DNA of 64,000 bases from Escherichia coli O127:H6 str. E2348/69. GTDB lineage: Bacteria; Pseudomonadota; Gammaproteobacteria; Enterobacterales; Enterobacteriaceae. Positions 48,663-56,785 of this stretch are shown piece by piece (the stretch's first letter is position 1; every line of letters begins with the position of its first letter). The stretch lies in assembly GCF_000026545.1 (NCBI RefSeq), contig NC_011601.1; one strand, 5' to 3'. The position numbers and the translations under genes were made by a program. Below the pieces are notes generated by a model, which was not told the DNA's origin, searched no databases, and saw only the letters and a program-made list of their open reading frames with translations.

Positions 48663-48839
48663 ATGGATATGACCATGCAGGAATTACGGGCTACTCTAAA
48701 CCTATCCCCCAACTATCCTGAAGAAAACCACTTTCTAGATGATAATCTAACGGAAGAACTCGATAATGAGGAAATTCGACAACATCTGGGAATAGATTCG
48801 GATTGGATGGATGCAGTGGACACTAGCCAGATAATTTGA
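48663..48839 (+). CDS. Small highly acidic ORF (58 aa), not in ORF track
   Basis: Manual translation MDMTMQELRATLNLSPNYPEENHFLDDNLTEELDNEEIRQHLGIDSDWMDAVDTSQII; GGAG upstream. Confidence 0.25.
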   Translation: MDMTMQELRATLNLSPNYPEENHFLDDNLTEELDNEEIRQHLGIDSDWMDAVDTSQII

Positions 48840-49020
48840 ATCCTAACTAACAAAAACGCTGTCTGCCCTCTGTAGATTGGCGCTCTGTAGTGTTTGTCTT
48901 GCTTGCTTTTGACACCAAGTCGCCTGTAACTATGATCACGGGCAGGCATGAGCAAACAGATAACATAAAAGTCTATTATGGGAAGTGATTCAAGAAATCA
49001 TGGTAATTCATAGATAACTA

Positions 49021-49059
49021 AAATAGAATAATAGCCCAAATCAAACTTGATGAGGGCTA
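49021..49059 (-). terminator. Possible terminator downstream of the two-gene cassette
   Basis: TAGCCC/GGGCTA stem (16-nt loop) with T-rich minus-strand tail. Confidence 0.3.
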
Positions 49060-49064
49060 TATTT

Positions 49065-49724
49065 TTAGTAATTGAATGATGTGCCATTCCCGTTAGTTAG
49101 ACTTTTTATGCTTTTTCTGAGGAATGGGTGTGTCATAAAACCGTTGACTCTCACACCGTAGACTGATAGAAAATTTTGGCATATAGGTATCAATTTTTTG
49201 CTATCATCCTTTGATGATTTTAAATCAATAAGTGTTGATATGTCTTGGTGTGTTATTAATTCTGTTGAAAACTTAAGCGCCAAGCTTTCTTTTGCGAAAA
49301 TTGGCGCTCGCATTTCTGCACTGAGTGATATAAGAATTGTCCTTACGCACCATGATATCCTTTTATTCATTAAGAATTTGTTTTGAATGTTATTGTTTTC
49401 AGCACATATAAAATGCAATAATTTTGTTGCAGTATCAATATCATCTGAATAATTTTCTTTGTATTTAAATGATGATGATATGCTTTCAAATAGCTCCTCG
49501 TTAAATATTGGCAAGCCCTCTTCCTTCAAGTGCAAGGCAAATAAACTCCCACCTTCCATTATTTTCTTCGCCAATGCAACAGGATACATTGCTATATTTA
49601 ACTTTCCTTTCACAATCATTTTGTAATGTAGGCCATCGTATATAGCAAACATATCCACATCAGATGCCTCAGTTTGATCTCCACGAGCAGTGCTTCCATA
49701 AATAACCAAAGATTTAATATCCAT
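49065..49724 (-). CDS. Minimal nucleotidyltransferase (pol-beta superfamily) with C-terminal helical domain (219 aa)
   Basis: GS-x10-DVD motif (LVIYGSTARGDQTEASDVDMFAIY); start 1 nt after upstream stop; ~30% GC. Confidence 0.6.
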   Translation of the reverse strand: MDIKSLVIYGSTARGDQTEASDVDMFAIYDGLHYKMIVKGKLNIAMYPVALAKKIMEGGSLFALHLKEEGLPIFNEELFESISSSFKYKENYSDDIDTATKLLHFICAENNNIQNKFLMNKRISWCVRTILISLSAEMRAPIFAKESLALKFSTELITHQDISTLIDLKSSKDDSKKLIPICQNFLSVYGVRVNGFMTHPFLRKSIKSLTNGNGTSFNY

Positions 49725-49725
49725 G

Positions 49726-50847
49726 CTAAGACCTTGATGTACATATTTTATTTATTAAAGTTGGTATTAATATACCATACCACCATACACCAATCATCAT
49801 GTTAATCAGGTGTATTGTTTCATCTAGCTGCCCAATACCACTGGTCGTGCGCTCTGTTGAATACTTCGTGTAACCTGTAAGAAGAGTTATATCAACTGCC
49901 TTCATGAATGCCCCAATAACATCACCGGATGATGTTATTGCATAGATAATCGTAAATACAATCATGATAAATAAACCAACAAATATACATCTGAATAAAC
50001 TCCCTCCCCAACCATTAATGAGACCTGATGTATTTATTATAAAATTCTCAATCACTGATTTTAACAGCAGTATGCTGTACCATAGCTTTTTTGTTACTTT
50101 TGAATTACTACGCTCGAAGAGTAGAGATTTCTGCTTAGATTTTTGTTTGCATTTGAAGTGAACCTCTACCGCCTGATAATACACTTCATCATCCGGAATT
50201 GTAGATAATGAATTAAGCAATATCTTAGAGCACTTTGTTTTAGTTCCATAGGACCTGTATTTTTGGTACTCAGGTGTTGTACCTTCTTTCTCACAAATAT
50301 CTTTATCTTGATTTACAAATAGCGCACCAATAAATTTACTTGGCTCGATATATGTATTATTTAACTTTGTTTCATTACCGGAATAAGATATATCCTTATA
50401 TGTACAATTATTAAACTGACAGTTTTCAAATGATGCCATTGAAAAACTGCATTCGATAAAGGTACAATCTACAAATTTAATATTTTTGAAATTTGCATAA
50501 CCAAAGCAAACCTTCCTGAACTCACAACTCTTAAATGTTATTCTTATTCCTTTGTTGTCACCATATATATCACACTCTGTAAATACATATCCTGAAAAGA
50601 ATTTATTTTTAAAATTTTCAGGTTTATGTTTCTTTGATAAAATCAATTTTCCTTCATAGTCTTTAGGAGTAGCTATATGCTCAGGAATAGTTAAGTCTAT
50701 CGCTACCTTTCGAGGTCCAGAGTTGTTTTTCCCGTTAATATTTAGGTCGTCAAGTCCCCATTTGATGAACTCTTCCAGATTAATGTTAGGATCATATGTC
50801 GCATCCCAATAATTTTTTATCCGATGCTGCCTGATGCTGTTGGCCAT
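49726..50847 (-). CDS. Pentapeptide-repeat protein with C-terminal two-TM, ion-channel-like domain (373 aa)
   Basis: Central tandem pentapeptide repeats; C-terminal hydrophobic helices FRCIFVGLFIMIVFTIIYAI and MMIGVWWYGILIPTLI flanking LLTGYTKY; AT-rich. Confidence 0.6.
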   Translation of the reverse strand: MANSIRQHRIKNYWDATYDPNINLEEFIKWGLDDLNINGKNNSGPRKVAIDLTIPEHIATPKDYEGKLILSKKHKPENFKNKFFSGYVFTECDIYGDNKGIRITFKSCEFRKVCFGYANFKNIKFVDCTFIECSFSMASFENCQFNNCTYKDISYSGNETKLNNTYIEPSKFIGALFVNQDKDICEKEGTTPEYQKYRSYGTKTKCSKILLNSLSTIPDDEVYYQAVEVHFKCKQKSKQKSLLFERSNSKVTKKLWYSILLLKSVIENFIINTSGLINGWGGSLFRCIFVGLFIMIVFTIIYAITSSGDVIGAFMKAVDITLLTGYTKYSTERTTSGIGQLDETIHLINMMIGVWWYGILIPTLINKICTSRS

Positions 50848-51659
50848 TTTTTAACCCACACAATTCTTTTGTTATGTATTTCAGGCTTTGTTAACGTTTC
50901 AGCCAGAATGCTGCACTGTCTGTATATACAAAAAACTGAGTATTGGTGCTATCGTCACCGGTAACTGGAACTTTTACACGGGAGCATCAACCAAATTCGT
51001 TCTTTCATTGTATCCGCGTTATACGTGCATTCAAGCTACAAGATGATGAAAAACGCCTGTGTCTATTCTAGCAAGTGAACCGTCGTGAGTTCAACAGACA
51101 CAAGGGGCTACCCTTCAACAGATCCTGCTCTATGGTTGGGGGCCCCCCTTCGCGTTATGCGTTCTACGTTCATAAATGTTCGCTATTGGCACATGTCGGG
51201 TGAAATACTTGACCAAAAACTAAAGTACACGTGCCTAAGCAAAATCTGAAACTGAGAGACTGGCTAGTCAGAGTCGAATTTTACGCAAGGACTCGGTTCA
51301 ACTCTTTGTTTGGCAGTCTCTGCTCCCAAAAATGGTTTCATGCATATGATAAACCTTTTAGATTAGATTGAGCTCAGGTCAACAATAGTGTCAGATCGAG
51401 CACAAATCAGCACTAATGATGCTACACATCGTTTAGCACATCCAATTTTAGCCACCTAAAATGCGTTCTAATGCGGATATATGTCTACCTGCAATTCTTT
51501 CACCACTTCACACCGAAAACCTCAAATATCGGCTCCTATTACGTTTTTTCTCTGGCTGGGATTTTTACACGTCGAGAATAGGGAAAACATCCCAAAAAAC
51601 GCTTACAGTATTGACGTTACGTTGCAGGTATTCTGGCTTTCAGCATTACAACGCCAATA

Positions 51660-51910
51660 TATATTATTGTTTTTAATATTGTTTTTATTTATCGTTATAA
51701 GATTGATTGTTTTTTATACATCAATTTTTCTATAAGAGTGAATCCTAAATATTGATATTTCTATGGGGTTGCCCTTCATCAAAATTGCGTTTTTTTCTAA
51801 GACTTTTGCTTTTTCATTGAGCTACGCGGATACGCCGCCTCTGGCGGCTTTCTCCCGCGACAGGTCACAATCGTCGAATGCGAGTCGCCGCCTTTGGCGG
51901 CTTTCTCGCT
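51660..51910. repeat. Origin-like region: AT-rich iterons plus duplicated hairpin next to rep
   Basis: TTGTTTTTA three times (51668-51713); CGCCGCCTCTGGCGGCTTTCTC (51832-51853) and CGCCGCCTTTGGCGGCTTTCTC (51884-51905), each a GCCGCC/GGCGGC hairpin. Confidence 0.4.
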
Positions 51911-51991
51911 ACTGACGTTTGAGGAGATTATGTTGTGGTTTAATGACTATTTTTGATTAAAAAAACCACAAATGGTCGCAAAACTCTACTA

Positions 51992-52990
51992 CTAATAGTA
52001 ACTGCGCATCCTTCTTTCTCTGGATATGTTCAAGCGCGCTTTTCTCAGCACCAGCAACAGCGGCTTACTTCTTAACAATTCACAAAGCGTTATCGCCTTC
52101 GGTGAGTACTGTCTGGCTTGCAGCGCCTCTCTACGCTCTACCTCTGCGGCTTTTCTGAGGGCTAGCGTTTGTAAGTTGTAGTATGTTTTATCGCTACATG
52201 TAACGATGATTGGTTTCACATGTGATCGTTCGGGTGAGTCAGCCAGTGTTCGCTGTATCCTGCGGCGCTGCGCTGGTCTTTTTGCTTTTGACGCTTCAAG
52301 TTTCAACTGCGTACGCCGTACTTCAAAGTATCCCGCTGCTTCTGGGGTTATGATCTGCGATGCGTGCGTTGCCCAATTACTGGATGACGCCCATACGGAC
52401 ACTGATAACCAGTCGTACGGGCTTTTTTCTGCTCTGGCATTAAACTCCTTAAGTTTAGTTTTACCTTTTGTAAGGTACGATAGGACTTCAAAACTGTAAA
52501 CGAATCTAACATCTTGATTTTTAATTAAATTATTGCGACCCTCATATGGCTGGCGCTTTACCCACGCAACCAGCAGGTCTCTCGCTATGCTCTCATCTGG
52601 AACTTTCACAATCATGTGTAAATGTAGGGTATCCTGAAACGCCGCCCACTCAACACAATATATCCACGGAATACTGCGTCTCGTAAGCGAGCGTGTGAAT
52701 GTGGTTATCGCCGTTTTCAAAGTCTCCGGCGTGATGCACTGTGCTGGGCGTAAGGTCAGCAAATATACGTTTCCACCTTGTGTAGCATCCAGATCGATAG
52801 AGAGTAGACGTCTTTTGAAGGCTCTAAGCCTGTCAATCGAAAAAGCCACTTTGCGCTTTCTGATGTGGCTGTTTGGGCTTGTTTTCTTTCTTTGCTTGTT
52901 TTGGTTGCGTGGTTTCATGTAAGCGTCAACAAATGCACCACGCTTGCGCACGATGTATTGTTCAGCGCGATCCCCGTGATATAATTTCAT
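51992..52990 (-). CDS. Rolling-circle-type (HUH) replication initiator (332 aa)
   Basis: HUH-like motif TLHLHMIVKV and downstream Tyr motif VLSYLTKGKTK; basic C-terminus. Confidence 0.5.
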   Translation of the reverse strand: MKLYHGDRAEQYIVRKRGAFVDAYMKPRNQNKQRKKTSPNSHIRKRKVAFSIDRLRAFKRRLLSIDLDATQGGNVYLLTLRPAQCITPETLKTAITTFTRSLTRRSIPWIYCVEWAAFQDTLHLHMIVKVPDESIARDLLVAWVKRQPYEGRNNLIKNQDVRFVYSFEVLSYLTKGKTKLKEFNARAEKSPYDWLSVSVWASSSNWATHASQIITPEAAGYFEVRRTQLKLEASKAKRPAQRRRIQRTLADSPERSHVKPIIVTCSDKTYYNLQTLALRKAAEVERREALQARQYSPKAITLCELLRSKPLLLVLRKARLNISRERRMRSYY

Positions 52991-53042
52991 TGCGAATATG
53001 TTCCTAAAATTACCCGCCTGGCAGGGCGGGTTTTTTTATGTC

Positions 53043-53432
53043 TTACAGGTACTTTTCCCCAATTGCTTGCGTTATCTCTGAGAACGACGATTCAGACACG
53101 TCCCCTCTGATCCCCCTAAGTATTCGTAACGCAGACTCAACCTTGCGTAATATCTTCGTGTATCTTGCATTGGTGCGCCATATACAAAGCATTCCCGCTT
53201 TGTCGAGTCGGTATTTTACCAAATCCCTTTCAGGAATGTGATATGCACCATCCATGCGCTGTTCGACGGGGATACCCCAGTCATTACGTAACAGAGTTAA
53301 AACACGGCTGCGCTCATGTCCACCAGCAGAAGATAAGTACCTGTCAAATTGGGTTGGGGTGAGGCTATGACCATCTAACAGAATATCGCGGATCTGTGCG
53401 GTAGCTTGGTTTCGTGTCAATGCTTTCATCAT
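53043..53432 (-). CDS. Hypothetical protein (130 aa from ATG at 53432)
   Basis: Track ORF (231 aa) trimmed because its N-terminal third overlaps the AlpA-like gene in another frame. Confidence 0.4.
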   Translation of the reverse strand: MMKALTRNQATAQIRDILLDGHSLTPTQFDRYLSSAGGHERSRVLTLLRNDWGIPVEQRMDGAYHIPERDLVKYRLDKAGMLCIWRTNARYTKILRKVESALRILRGIRGDVSESSFSEITQAIGEKYL

Positions 53433-53439
53433 TTGCCCC

Positions 53440-53622
53440 TTACAGAAACCGGGCTGCGAATTGGTCGAGATCTGCAACCAACCATACTCTGCGCTTTCTG
53501 CCGTTGATAGACTGGACGGTGCAAGTCGGAAAAGCTGGAATGTAACGCTTATATTGGTAAAAGCGTGATAGACAAACGCCAAGATATTGCGCGGATTCTC
53601 GCGCGGTAAGGTAATTTTCCAT
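53440..53622 (-). CDS. Small AlpA/Xis-like HTH protein (60 aa)
   Basis: LTARESAQYLGVCLSRFYQYKR HTH-like segment; sits between int and rep. Confidence 0.45.
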   Translation of the reverse strand: MENYLTARESAQYLGVCLSRFYQYKRYIPAFPTCTVQSINGRKRRVWLVADLDQFAARFL

Positions 53623-53824
53623 AATAACGATCCATGTTTATGTTTTGTCCACATTATGGGGCATCCTGCCCCATAAATACTGTACATAATTTTTTCAATT
53701 ATCCCAAGTCTACAACCAAAAAATCTCCCGCGTAGCAATCCCTATAGTTCGCCCTTGTTCTGTTTCAATTTCATATACGCTAGCTCCACACAAGCTGTAT
53801 CGCCACCATAATTTCGATCTCCGG

Positions 53825-55087
53825 CTAATTACAGTTACTATATTTTTTCATGGGGACGACGTTGTAATCTTCACCACTTTCCAGCGTAACCAGCAGTTCA
53901 GCCCACTGCTCCAATGCAGCTTTTCTCTCTTCAAAATAGTGGTGGCGATTATAAATACCTTCAACACCGGGTATTTTATGATTAAGACATCTTTCAGCTA
54001 TTACAGGATCAATCCCCAATGCTGCCATCTGGGTACGCATCGTACGTCGTAAGTCATGAATGCTAAATGGCTCAACATCAGGCATCTCTTTTAATACTGA
54101 AGGCAAAACCATATTCAGCGTACTGCGACTAACGTGCGATGTAGTCCTCCCCCTCCTTGCCGGAATTAACCAGCGGCTATTACCAGCAAACAGACGGATT
54201 TCCTTGATCCATTCGATAACAGGATCAGCTAGCGGGATGTCTATCTCCTCACCATTTTTTGCTCGATCAGCAGGAAAATGCCAAACTTTTTCATCAAGAT
54301 TAAACTCCGACCACTCGGCAGCGCATAATTCCATCTTGCGAACCCCTAGCGCGAGAATGATTTTAAACGTTAACTCATTCTCTCTGCTAATACCCCGCCC
54401 CTTACGCAGAGCTTTAAAAAACATTACTAGCTCCTCACGCGTGAGTGCTCGCTTACGCCCTTGCTCTTTCCCGCCTGCATCTTTTGAACTAAATGAAATC
54501 GCGGGGTTTACTTCAATCATCCCGCGTACAACAGCATAATCAAAAAGGCGCTTAAGCATTCTTAGCACGTCATTCGCAACGGTAGGAGAACCGCGCTCTA
54601 ATACATTCTGCAAAACATAGTCGATATGTTTCGGGCGTACATCCTCAATTTTCATTTTGCCGATAGATGCGACAATGTTTTTTTGTAAGCTACTGCGAAA
54701 TAACTCCGGATGCTTGTAAGTGGGTTCTATCTGCCGCGAGTAATACTCAGCGGCTAAATCTGATACTCGTTTTGCGTTCTTTTGCGCTTCAATCTTTTCC
54801 AATGCTTCAGCTTTTCGCTTCTGTTTCTCTCCTGCTACGTCATAACCAAGAGAAACACGGGCTGCCAGTTCTCTGGCGACCTCTCTTGCTTTTGCAAGAG
54901 AGAAATCAGTATACGAACCAATCAGCACAACTCGCGATTTTCCGCCTAACTTGTAACGAAAGCGCCAGTTAGGGAGTTTGTCACTTTTCCTAAATCGAAG
55001 ATAAAGCCCGTTTCCGTCTGCCTTACCTTCGAATCTCTCATCGGATTTAATCCAAGCTTTGATTTGTAGGTCAGTTAATTTTGCCAT
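53825..55087 (-). CDS. int: Tyrosine integrase (P4-type)
   Basis: MAKLTDLQIKAWIKSDERFEGKADGNGLYLRFRKSDKLPNWRFRYK arm-binding N-terminus; HDLRRT...Y catalytic region; ATG at 55087 with GGTG RBS. Confidence 0.8.
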   Translation of the reverse strand: MAKLTDLQIKAWIKSDERFEGKADGNGLYLRFRKSDKLPNWRFRYKLGGKSRVVLIGSYTDFSLAKAREVARELAARVSLGYDVAGEKQKRKAEALEKIEAQKNAKRVSDLAAEYYSRQIEPTYKHPELFRSSLQKNIVASIGKMKIEDVRPKHIDYVLQNVLERGSPTVANDVLRMLKRLFDYAVVRGMIEVNPAISFSSKDAGGKEQGRKRALTREELVMFFKALRKGRGISRENELTFKIILALGVRKMELCAAEWSEFNLDEKVWHFPADRAKNGEEIDIPLADPVIEWIKEIRLFAGNSRWLIPARRGRTTSHVSRSTLNMVLPSVLKEMPDVEPFSIHDLRRTMRTQMAALGIDPVIAERCLNHKIPGVEGIYNRHHYFEERKAALEQWAELLVTLESGEDYNVVPMKKYSNCN

Positions 55088-55111
55088 TACGAACACCTGA
55101 ATACGTTACAT

Positions 55112-55206
55112 CGGGTACGCAAAGCCATCGTCACCGTGTACCCAATTTCTAACACCGTGTACCCAAACCGCAAGAACCTCTCTTTGGGTACACTTTTGTG
55201 TACACA
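55112..55206. promoter_or_regulatory. Cluster of GTAC-core direct and inverted repeats upstream of int
   Basis: CACCGTGTACCCAA twice (55132-55145, 55153-55166, 21-bp period); TGGGTACACttTTGTGTACACA (55185-55206), also found at 47924-47945. Confidence 0.4.
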
Positions 55207-55245
55207 ATATCTTGCATCTTTATGAACTGTTATGACAACTAGTGA

Positions 55246-55272
55246 TAATAAAAAAGCCCGCAATATGCGGGC
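55246..55272 (-). terminator. Rho-independent terminator of der
   Basis: GCCCGC-aatat-GCGGGC hairpin with minus-strand T-run. Confidence 0.5.
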
Positions 55273-55312
55273 TTATAAGGTTTTGTAGTGTTTAGTGAAT
55301 CGTGATGATTCG

Positions 55313-56785
55313 TTATTTGCTTTTCTTGATATGCTTCATCAAACGCTTACGCTTGCGCATCTGGGTTGGCGTCAGGGTATTACGCTTGTTCGCATACGGG
55401 TTTTCCCCTTCTTTGAACTGAATACGAATCGGCGATCCCATTACGTCCAGCGATTTGCGGAAGTAGTTCATCAGGTAACGCTTGTAGGAATCCGACAGGT
55501 CTTTCACCTGATTACCGTGAATCACCACAATCGGCGGGTTATAACCACCGGCGTGGGCATATTTCAGCTTCACACGACGACCGCGTACCAGCGGCGGTTG
55601 GTGATCTTCAACAGCCATCGTCATGATGCGCGTCAGCATAGAGGTCCCCACACGACGGGTGGAGCTGTCATACGCTTCACGTACTGATTCAAACAGGTTA
55701 CCAACACCACTGCCGTGCAAGGCAGAGATAAAGTGCACACGAGCAAAATCGATAAAACCCAGACGGAAGTCCAGCGTTTCTTTCACCTGCTCTTTCACTT
55801 CCTGGCTCAGGCCATCCCACTTATTCACCACAATGACAAGTGAGCGCCCACTATTGAGAATAAAGCCCAGCAGCGAGAGATCCTGATCGGAAATACCTTC
55901 GCGGGCGTCAATCACCAACATCACCACGTTGGCATCTTCAATGGCCTGCAACGTTTTGATTACCGAGAACTTCTCTACCGCATCGGTGATTTTGCCGCGT
56001 TTACGTACGCCAGCGGTGTCAATGAGCACATACTCACGTCCGTCGCGTTCCATTGGAATGTAGATACTGTCACGCGTCGTGCCAGGCATGTCGTAAACAA
56101 CAACGCGCTCTTCACCAAGAATACGGTTAGTGAGTGTAGACTTACCTACGTTCGGGCGACCCACAATCGCCAGTTTGATCGGCAGACTTTGCGGGTCGAA
56201 GTCGTCTTCCTCTTCTTCTTCGCCGTTCTCTTCCGCTTCAAATTGCGCCCAGTATTCGGCGTCTTCGTCGACTTCTTCTTGCGGTGCGAGATCTTCCATC
56301 CACGGCAGCAGCACGTGCTCCAGCAGACTTAATACGCCACGACCGTGAGACGCGGCGATCGGGTAGATTTCACCTAAACCAAGCGCGTAGAAATCAACCA
56401 CTGCCTGATCGGGATCCAGACCGTCAGTTTTGTTTGCCACCAGGAAGGTCGGTTTTTCACGGGAGCGCAGATGTTTGGCAATCGCTTCATCTGCCGGCAT
56501 AAGGCCCGCGCGCGCATCCACCATAAACAGTACGACGTCCGCTTCTTCAATCGCCAGCAGCGACTGTTCCGCCATGCGGGTTTCTACACCGTCTTCTGTG
56601 CCATCAATCCCGCCGGTATCAATGCAGATAAACTCACGGCCTTCAATTTCCGCACGACCGTACTTACGGTCACGAGTCAGACCCGGGAAATCCGCAACCA
56701 GCGCATCTCGGGTGCGAGTTAGACGGTTAAATAACGTGGATTTTCCTACGTTAGGGCGCCCGACAAGCGCGACCACAGGTACCAT
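55313..56785 (-). CDS. der: Ribosome-associated GTPase Der (EngA)
   Basis: Two GTPase domains (GRPNVGKST twice); 490 aa from [17 protein letters not shown]. Confidence 0.95.

Follow-up and report, generated by a model that had tools for sequence, protein, structure and literature searches.

What are the repeats with a GTAC core that crowd the region upstream of the integrase gene (int) of a small island in Escherichia coli O127:H6 str. E2348/69, and why is one of them duplicated at the opposite end of the island? A sequence-only reading of the window (the whole stretch of DNA analysed, 64,000 nucleotides, in whose coordinates all positions are given) offered three answers: arm-type binding sites of Int, binding sites of an AlpA-like protein, or repeats associated with the att junctions. 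These answers were weighed by locating the ends of the island, by following the repeats through relatives of the island, and by comparison with known integration systems.

The island and its junctions with der

The island is a 7.5-kb integrase-only element (window ~47849-55327) that has integrated at the 3' end of der, within the last codons. It comprises six co-oriented minus-strand genes between sinH and der, which encode Int, a hypothetical protein, a Rep-like protein, HalA, a nucleotidyltransferase and an AlpA-fusion protein. Int (53825-55087, minus strand; 420 aa) is a tyrosine integrase of the P4 family with an Arm-DNA-bind_3 domain (residues 4-90, E = 2.7e-18), a Phage_int_M domain (110-197) and a catalytic domain (215-383), and both the HDLRR and the C-terminal Tyr region are present. 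The 199-aa AlpA-like protein (47959-48558, minus strand) carries a C-terminal HTH of the AlpA/excisionase type (145-191) and is a candidate recombination directionality factor, as well as a candidate alternative binder of the repeats. It looks like a fusion, its residues 5-43 resembling the N-terminus of a separate 179-aa protein (38% identity) that adjoins a stand-alone 76-aa AlpA in the yicC island of Klebsiella quasipneumoniae (L011 16460-16999 and 16113-16343, respectively). The 332-aa Rep-like protein has a weak REP_ORF2-G2P match of 27.1 bits, below the cut-off of 27.8.

The ends of the island were set by comparing both junctions with an empty site, NZ_CP090611.1 (L002), from a strain in which sinH directly adjoins der and which gives attB, aattaCTTACTTTTCTTGATATGCTTCATC, at the der end. 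In this comparison the att identity block is TTAYTTRCTTTTCTTRATATG, located in the der 3' end. At attL the block is TTACTTACTTTTCTTAATATG (47842-47862), which belongs to the displaced original der 3' end, and at attR it is TTATTTGCTTTTCTTGATATG (55313-55333), also present in the relative locus L003. Polymorphisms on either side confine the crossover to CTTTTCTT (47849-47856 in attL and 55320-55327 in attR), a core that contains no GTAC. The stop codon and last codons of der (KKSK*) are rebuilt by TTATTTG supplied by the element. The rebuilding is synonymous, with AAGAAAAGCAAATAA of the element replacing AAGAAAAGTAAGTAA. The element also brings its own rho-independent terminator (55254-55274, minus strand), which replaces that of der, ends der transcription before the int upstream region and is conserved in all relatives. 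An Rfam scan of the island gave a sub-threshold Trp_leader match on this terminator and nothing else. No tRNA was found in the 64-kb window, and a tRNA gene as insertion target was dropped in favour of the der 3' end.

The alignment to an empty site, which the sequence-only reading had proposed as a check, shows that the GTAC repeats are absent from the strain lacking the element, and in the island they lie 62 bp and at least 106 bp inside the junction blocks. Since they are missing from the empty site and internal to the element, the repeats are parts of the attP arms and not att junction repeats.

Seven GTAC units and the layout of attP

The individual repeats described from the sequence were all recovered at their positions. 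The first, CACCGTGTACCCAA, has two exact copies in the window (55132-55145 and 55153-55166) placed 21 bp apart; when up to 2 mismatches are allowed the number of matches is still 2, against 0.42 expected, and 8 of 100 shuffles give 2 as well. The second, the 22-mer TGGGTACACNNTTGTGTACACA at 55185-55206, recurs at 47924-47945, close to the opposite end of the island as now defined by the empty-site comparison (47842-47862 and 55313-55333). It has no third copy in the window even with 3 mismatches, and 100 shuffles gave 0 matches. Within it lies the perfect palindrome TGTGTACACA (55197-55206 and 47936-47945). A strand-blind scan of the 64-kb window for G[GT]GTACAC returned 6 sites, every one within 55136-55205 or 47925-47944.

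The repeats can be described as seven units, five on the int side and two, forming one doubled unit, on the far arm; they are absent from the RefSeq annotation. The int-proximal doubled unit, TTGGGTACAC-TT-TTGTGTACAC-AA (55184-55207, plus strand), has a 12-bp period and is centred at 55195.5. Co-oriented with it is the int-distal doubled unit, CTGGGTACAC-CC-TTGTGTACAC-AT (47923-47946, plus strand), 14 bp beyond the stop codon of the AlpA-like gene. Two single units equal TTGGGTACAC on the minus strand, s2 (55157-55166), which lies within the CACCGTGTACCCAA copy at 55153-55166, and s1 (55136-55145), 21 bp from s2. The fifth int-side unit, s0, is a degenerate version, TCGGGTACGC (55111-55120, plus strand), 24 bp upstream of the int ATG. 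The int-side arm was found in 19 of 5,426 complete E. coli genomes.

When attP is rebuilt in silico by joining the two ends of the island, the GTAC units flank the crossover with one group on each arm. On the int side, 128 bp separate the centre of the proximal doubled unit from that of the crossover, and the three single units follow toward the int ATG, the int-side units being centred 128-207 bp from the crossover, while the distal doubled unit is centred 82 bp away on the far side. On the core side of the distal doubled unit, ~38 bp from the crossover, lies an A/T-rich block, CATTTGATTTTAAAT (47884-47898), which has one mismatch to YAANNNNTTGATW and is conserved in the far-arm alignment (A2) and in L003; by its sequence it is a candidate IHF bend site. 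The layout is that of a P4-type attP, with co-oriented 12-bp tandem pairs at 128 and 82 bp and a single unit near the int start. The features of arm-type sites are likewise found, as Int has a separate N-terminal arm domain and the units, which differ from the core in sequence, lie within the element to either side of the crossover.

Conservation of the units among relatives

Relatives were gathered by protein search and contig look-ups, and a locus search in genomes gave 4 close loci. The protein search returned one Int clade at 76-85% identity and another at 60-65%; an Int search of a phage collection found nothing closer than 31%. The relatives are inserted in der (Klebsiella, Enterobacter, Buttiauxella), in the 3' end of yicC (Klebsiella, Salmonella, Yersinia) or beside mipA (Citrobacter), and their gene contents are very different. 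The GTAC units are nevertheless kept in nine diverged relatives that use three attB targets, and the geometry of 128.5 and 81.5 bp recurs in five der elements carrying different cargo. In AH50, MB50, E69 and 873.10 the distal doubled unit lies at 81.5-82.5 bp, and in the K. quasipneumoniae yicC island at 76.5 bp. Among the E. coli der elements with other cargo, AH50 carries CBASS and MB50 an ATPase and DUF2357 pair, and both have retained the units. In the 13.7-kb PICI-like element of 873.10 at der, whose int shares 77% nucleotide identity, the doubled-unit copies, four in total over both arms, all read TTGTACAC / TTGTACCC with the same G-to-T change, which is a concerted change.

The order upstream of int in the relatives is the end of the host gene, the terminator, CTATCA...CATGAT, GTGTAC(A/C)C-N4-GTGTACCC, one to two TTTGGGTACA units and the ATG. 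The alignment of the int arms (A3) averages 56% identity, with invariant columns concentrated in the units and TTTGGGTACA forming the third conserved block. The motif TGTAC[AC]C occurs 36 times in the 1,575 nt of nine int-proximal arms, compared with 36 times in the other 241 kb (Poisson p ~5e-65), and in 9 of 11 arms no 6-mer is repeated more often than GTACAC. The spacing between s1 and s2 is 21-22 bp in the der clade and 12-15 bp in the yicC clade, and in K. michiganensis the position homologous to s0 holds a good unit, CATTGGGTACACC. Conservation extends to a unit of 7-10 bp and to its doubling at 12 bp. The sequence-only reading had emphasized the 10-bp palindrome and the 21-bp spacing, which do exist but are incidental to the E2348/69 copy and are not conserved. 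Two candidate interpretations were rejected on these grounds, namely the palindrome as an operator for a dimer, as it is lost in relatives, and the spacing of two helical turns as a functional feature, given the 12-15 bp of the yicC clade.

Much larger elements that resemble satellites, at der, yicC and mipA, likewise use integrases of the same clade (L012 19122-21269; L003 6283-8724; L010 15383-17146; L014 14540-16678). One of these is PICI-like with a P4-type or D5 primase, and another, with capsid, protease and portal genes, resembles a capsid-forming PICI. As same-clade integrases occur in both types of element, the integration module is common to minimal defence islands and phage satellites.

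Comparison with known integration systems

In the P4 record (NC_001609) a 12-bp 'attP arm sequence repeat' is annotated twice in tandem on either arm, at distances of 134 and 75 bp to the core. The P4 attP arm repeats were reportedly described originally by Pierson and Kahn in 1987. P4 and the island share co-oriented tandem 12-bp pairs on both arms (128 and 82 bp in the island), and in both int adjoins attP, with the int upstream region inside an arm. The P4 unit TTGGGGGCAY matches TTGGGTACAC of the island at 8 of 10 positions, and P4 Int is 25% identical to the island Int with the same set of domains (Arm-DNA-bind_3, central and catalytic). Both have an additional single copy near the int ATG, inverted in P4 and represented by s0 in the island. 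The two differ in that three single units separate the doubled unit from int in the island, compared with one in P4, and in the longer leader of the island. The doubled unit of the island also seems inverted relative to int when compared with P4, although this orientation is ambiguous because the GTAC core is self-complementary. The target of P4 is a tRNA-Leu gene and that of the island the der 3' end. As sid, psu, delta and the alpha primase of P4 are all missing from the island, it does not group with the P4-like satellites.

A doubled motif, tgTGTATTGCantgTGTATTGCa, has been described in helper-embedded PICIs (HE-PICIs) at 81 +/- 2 and 132 +/- 2 bp from the attP centre, and was called unique to HE-PICIs (PMC10111431). 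The HE-PICIs and the island share the tandem doubling at 12 bp, the co-orientation of the copies, an Arm-DNA-bind_3 integrase together with AlpA, and TGTGTA at the start of the unit. They differ in the 3' half of the unit (TTGC in HE-PICIs, CAC/CCC in the island) and in their targets, HE-PICIs inserting in prophage late genes and the island in der. The HE-PICI motif core TGTATTGC is not found in the island, which has TGTAC[AC]C in its place, while the geometry and the 12-bp doubling are the same.

A scan of viral contigs for GTGTACACNNNNGTGTACCC identified phage phi80 (JX871397) and its relatives. Directly upstream of its Arm-DNA-bind_3 int, phi80 carries nearly the same doubled unit, TTGTGTACAC-N4-GTGTACCCAAA, which overlaps the -10 of the putative int promoter pI of the record, and a degenerate doubled unit is present on the opposite arm. 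The record also annotates an IHF site ~41 bp from the core, a distance comparable to that of the CATTTGATTTTAAAT block of the island. The distances in phi80 are 156 and ~87 bp, and its Int is 26% identical to the island Int. Unlike the island, phi80 is a complete lambdoid phage that uses another attB, and its Xis gave no BLASTP match to AlpA. The phi80 units lie at positions 627-650 and 871-911 of JX871397 (L155), the third overlapping the region of the annotated int start codon.

In lambda a heterobivalent Int occupies arm sites on both sides of the core (P1, P2 and P'1-P'3), and a directionality factor is needed for excision. The tandem P' sites are found ~55-85 bp from the core, behind an IHF site. 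Both the family of the arm domain and the motif differ from those of the island, and the lambda int gene is not transcribed from inside the arm, so that lambda lacks the built-in autoregulation proposed below for the island. Such an arrangement is found in the IntS-TorI system of KplE1 (CPS-53) and HK620, in which arm-type Int sites overlap an int promoter situated within the att arm. In KplE1 these sites overlap the intS promoter, and IntS and TorI repress intS (PMC2951348). Transcription of int and of the directionality factor gene is uncoupled in KplE1, its arm motif is a TAAA-containing unit and its target a tRNA-Arg gene, the latter two differing from the island; binding and regulation were demonstrated experimentally in KplE1, whereas for the island they are deduced from sequence.

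Which protein reads the units

Compared with the E2348 Int, the arm domain (residues 1-95) is 74-75% identical in the der relatives and 71-74% in the yicC/mipA relatives. The core-binding domain is 80-87% identical in the former and 51-57% in the latter, and the catalytic domain 78-86% and 59-66%. Such domain-wise identities would be expected of an Int whose arm domain recognizes the constant GTAC units and whose other parts recognize the changing cores. The units travel with Int, remaining constant despite different cargo, replication genes, AlpA versions and attB targets, and sites on both arms at fixed distances from the crossover would suit bridging by Int better than a directionality factor. 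Of the three answers raised at the outset, the first is favoured by the presence of units on both arms, the P4-like distances and the tracking with Int, while the empty site speaks against att junction repeats. The GTAC repeats are hence likely to be arm-type binding sites of the island's own Int in a P4-type attP, as judged from these comparisons. A search of structures with an Arm-DNA-bind_3 domain returned the apo domains 3JTZ, 3RMP and 3JU0 and none bound to DNA, and a literature search on arm-type sites of DUF4102 integrases and on the attP arm sites of phi80 found no experimental mapping.

The main competing explanation, to which we assign a low probability, is that the repeats are sites of the AlpA-like protein (47959-48558), acting, alone or together with Int, as directionality factor and/or as transcriptional regulator of int. 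Every der, yicC and mipA relative encodes an AlpA-type HTH protein, as do P4 and the HE-PICIs, the self-complementary GTGTACAC would fit a dimer, and phi80 Xis and the E2348 AlpA-like protein both match phrog_4745. However, the AlpA domains of E2348 and of relatives with identical units are 36-43% identical, as opposed to 71-75% for the Int arm domain, and the palindrome is lost, Enterobacter having GTGTACCC twice and 873.10 TTGTACAC / TTGTACCC. The GTAC units are moreover located on both arms at fixed distances, whereas directionality factors such as lambda Xis and KplE1 TorI bind one arm. The authors of the HE-PICI study leave the choice between Int and AlpA open for their doubled motif (PMC10111431); in P4, on the other hand, Vis was proposed to act on RNA and Int on DNA (PMC2951348), which argues against an AlpA-like protein as the reader.

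Two further comparisons were tried as a means to separate Int from AlpA and were set aside. Tracking the motif against arm-domain or AlpA similarity in four lineages was not decisive. The motif does not follow overall arm-domain similarity, as the arm domain of phi80 Int is 29% identical and yet phi80 has nearly the same doubled unit, while phi80 Int is closer (37%) to the Int of the HE-PICIs, which uses TGTGTATTGC; an excisionase-type HTH protein is encoded in every lineage compared. The use of phi80 as an argument against AlpA is weak, as its Xis shares a PHROG family with the AlpA-like protein.

Considerably less probable is a role in replication or cargo functions, with the repeats serving as iterons or operators for the Rep-like 332-aa protein, for another protein of the element or for a host factor. 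Direct repeats at ~21 bp do resemble iteron spacing, the element encodes the weak REP_ORF2-G2P match, and phi80 has a near-identical motif although its Int is 26% identical, which could indicate a host protein common to both. Against this, the units occupy the same positions in elements with other replication modules (P4-type or D5 primases, DUF927), the 21-bp spacing varies among relatives, and the fixed distance to the crossover on both arms would be left unexplained. To our knowledge, no E. coli regulator has a GTAC-unit consensus. Replication iterons in particular were rejected, as the units do not co-vary with the Rep-like, P4-primase, D5 or DUF927 genes. Finally, that the two 22-mers are attL/attR direct repeats, either as core or as identity block, was suggested by their direct orientation near each island end but is practically refuted, since the 22-mer is absent from the empty site, the actual junction repeats differ from it in sequence (the identity block TTAYTTRCTTTTCTTRATATG in the der 3' end being 62 and 106 bp outside the 22-mers) and the yicC/mipA relatives keep the GTAC units with a different attB.

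The int upstream region and a possible mechanism

If the units are arm-type sites of Int, their position has consequences for int itself. The der terminator (55254-55274) and the int ATG (55087) are 166 bp apart, and most of this segment is taken up by the repeats. The sequence-only reading placed them in the int promoter; the position upstream of int is confirmed, while no sigma-70 consensus is called there. Scans for sigma-70 promoters in the int upstream region of E2348 and three relatives gave nothing on the int strand, and the lone match, in L003, falls on the other strand and is no more than chance would produce. By eye, weak promoter-like boxes can be seen in alignment A3 (55209-55238, minus strand), with TTGTCA (55233-55238) and CAAGAT (55209-55214) separated by an 18-bp spacer. 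They end 2-3 bp upstream of the doubled unit, correspond to CTATCA and CATGAT or CATAAT in the relatives, and are proposed with low confidence as the int promoter boxes. As all five int-side units lie in this 166-bp segment, overlap with the promoter or the leader would be unavoidable. Just past the terminator there is also a tandem TATCA / TGTCA pair ~11 bp apart (55226-55246, minus strand TTATCA-N5-TGTCAT), kept as TTATCA..CTATCA in the relatives (columns ~54-72 of alignment A3); the pair may be where the directionality factor binds, or may belong to the int promoter.

In the mechanism that we propose, the N-terminal Arm-DNA-bind_3 domains of Int protomers would bind the seven units while the C-terminal domains hold the core. 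On the far arm an IHF-type bend would bring the distal doubled unit to the core, and on the near arm the segment with the terminator and promoter would allow arm-bound Int to reach it. The resulting defined nucleoprotein complex would carry out integration (attP x attB) and, together with the AlpA-like protein, excision (attL x attR). Occupancy of the int-side units by Int would at the same time repress int, a negative autoregulation as in P4 Int and KplE1 IntS, and since the five int-side units all lie within 166 bp, such occupancy should shut down int. Judging from the position of the units, the GTAC arm sites probably serve int autoregulation as well. For P4, self-regulation of Int by direct DNA binding near the int start is reported (Piazzolla et al. 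2006, as cited in PMC2951348).

Significance and cargo of the island

Arm-type sites, the P4-type layout of attP and autoregulation of int are all known already, and no new mechanism is put forward here. What is new is that the exact ends, the attP and seven probable Int sites are mapped for this island, and that the 'doubled motif' of the HE-PICIs can be seen as one version of the older P4-type layout, which occurs with other units in several Int lineages. The seven units and one 95-residue domain also constitute a cheap test set for DNA recognition by Arm-DNA-bind_3. A bolder idea, which we consider rather doubtful, is that the P4-type arm scaffold (a doubled 12-bp unit ~80 and ~130 bp from the core) is a reusable chassis, in which just the core-binding domain and the core are retargeted, and that phi80-type Int and the island may occupy each other's arms. 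This reading would span integrases that are 25-30% identical, from P4, phi80, the HE-PICIs and the der/yicC/mipA islands. Given the near identity of the units in the island and in phi80, the arms of the island could be occupied by a phi80-type Int, or the reverse. If this were true there would be cross-talk at the level of the integrase, which would give phages a way to induce or prevent the excision of an integrase-only defence island.

Islands of this type move anti-phage systems into the der locus, Hailong in E2348/69 and CBASS or the ATPase/DUF2357 pair in relatives. Integrase-only islands of this type have been noted in the E. coli pan-genome, with their mobilisation described as unclear (PMC10121019). 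In E2348/69 halA and the nucleotidyltransferase gene make up the Hailong anti-phage system (49065-50847), situated in a cargo slot at ~48560-51990. The same slot, in near-identical backbones of other E. coli, holds CBASS (a DncV-like cyclase and effector; L004 3742-5654) or the ATPase and DUF2357 pair (L005 7412-11829). Between halA and the Rep-like gene there is a non-coding gap of 1.1 kb (50848-51991) with an A/T-rich stretch and no Rfam match, in which a hairpin repeat, CGCCGCCTYTGGCGGC, occurs twice (51833-51854 and 51886-51907), 53 bp apart. The gap may represent an origin, terminators or the boundary of the cargo module. The E. coli island is also carried, with an Int 99% identical and both att ends present, by DXAP01000044.1 (L007), a 9.9-kb contig in a MAG assigned to 'Candidatus Ligilactobacillus excrementavium', where it is almost certainly a binning contaminant.
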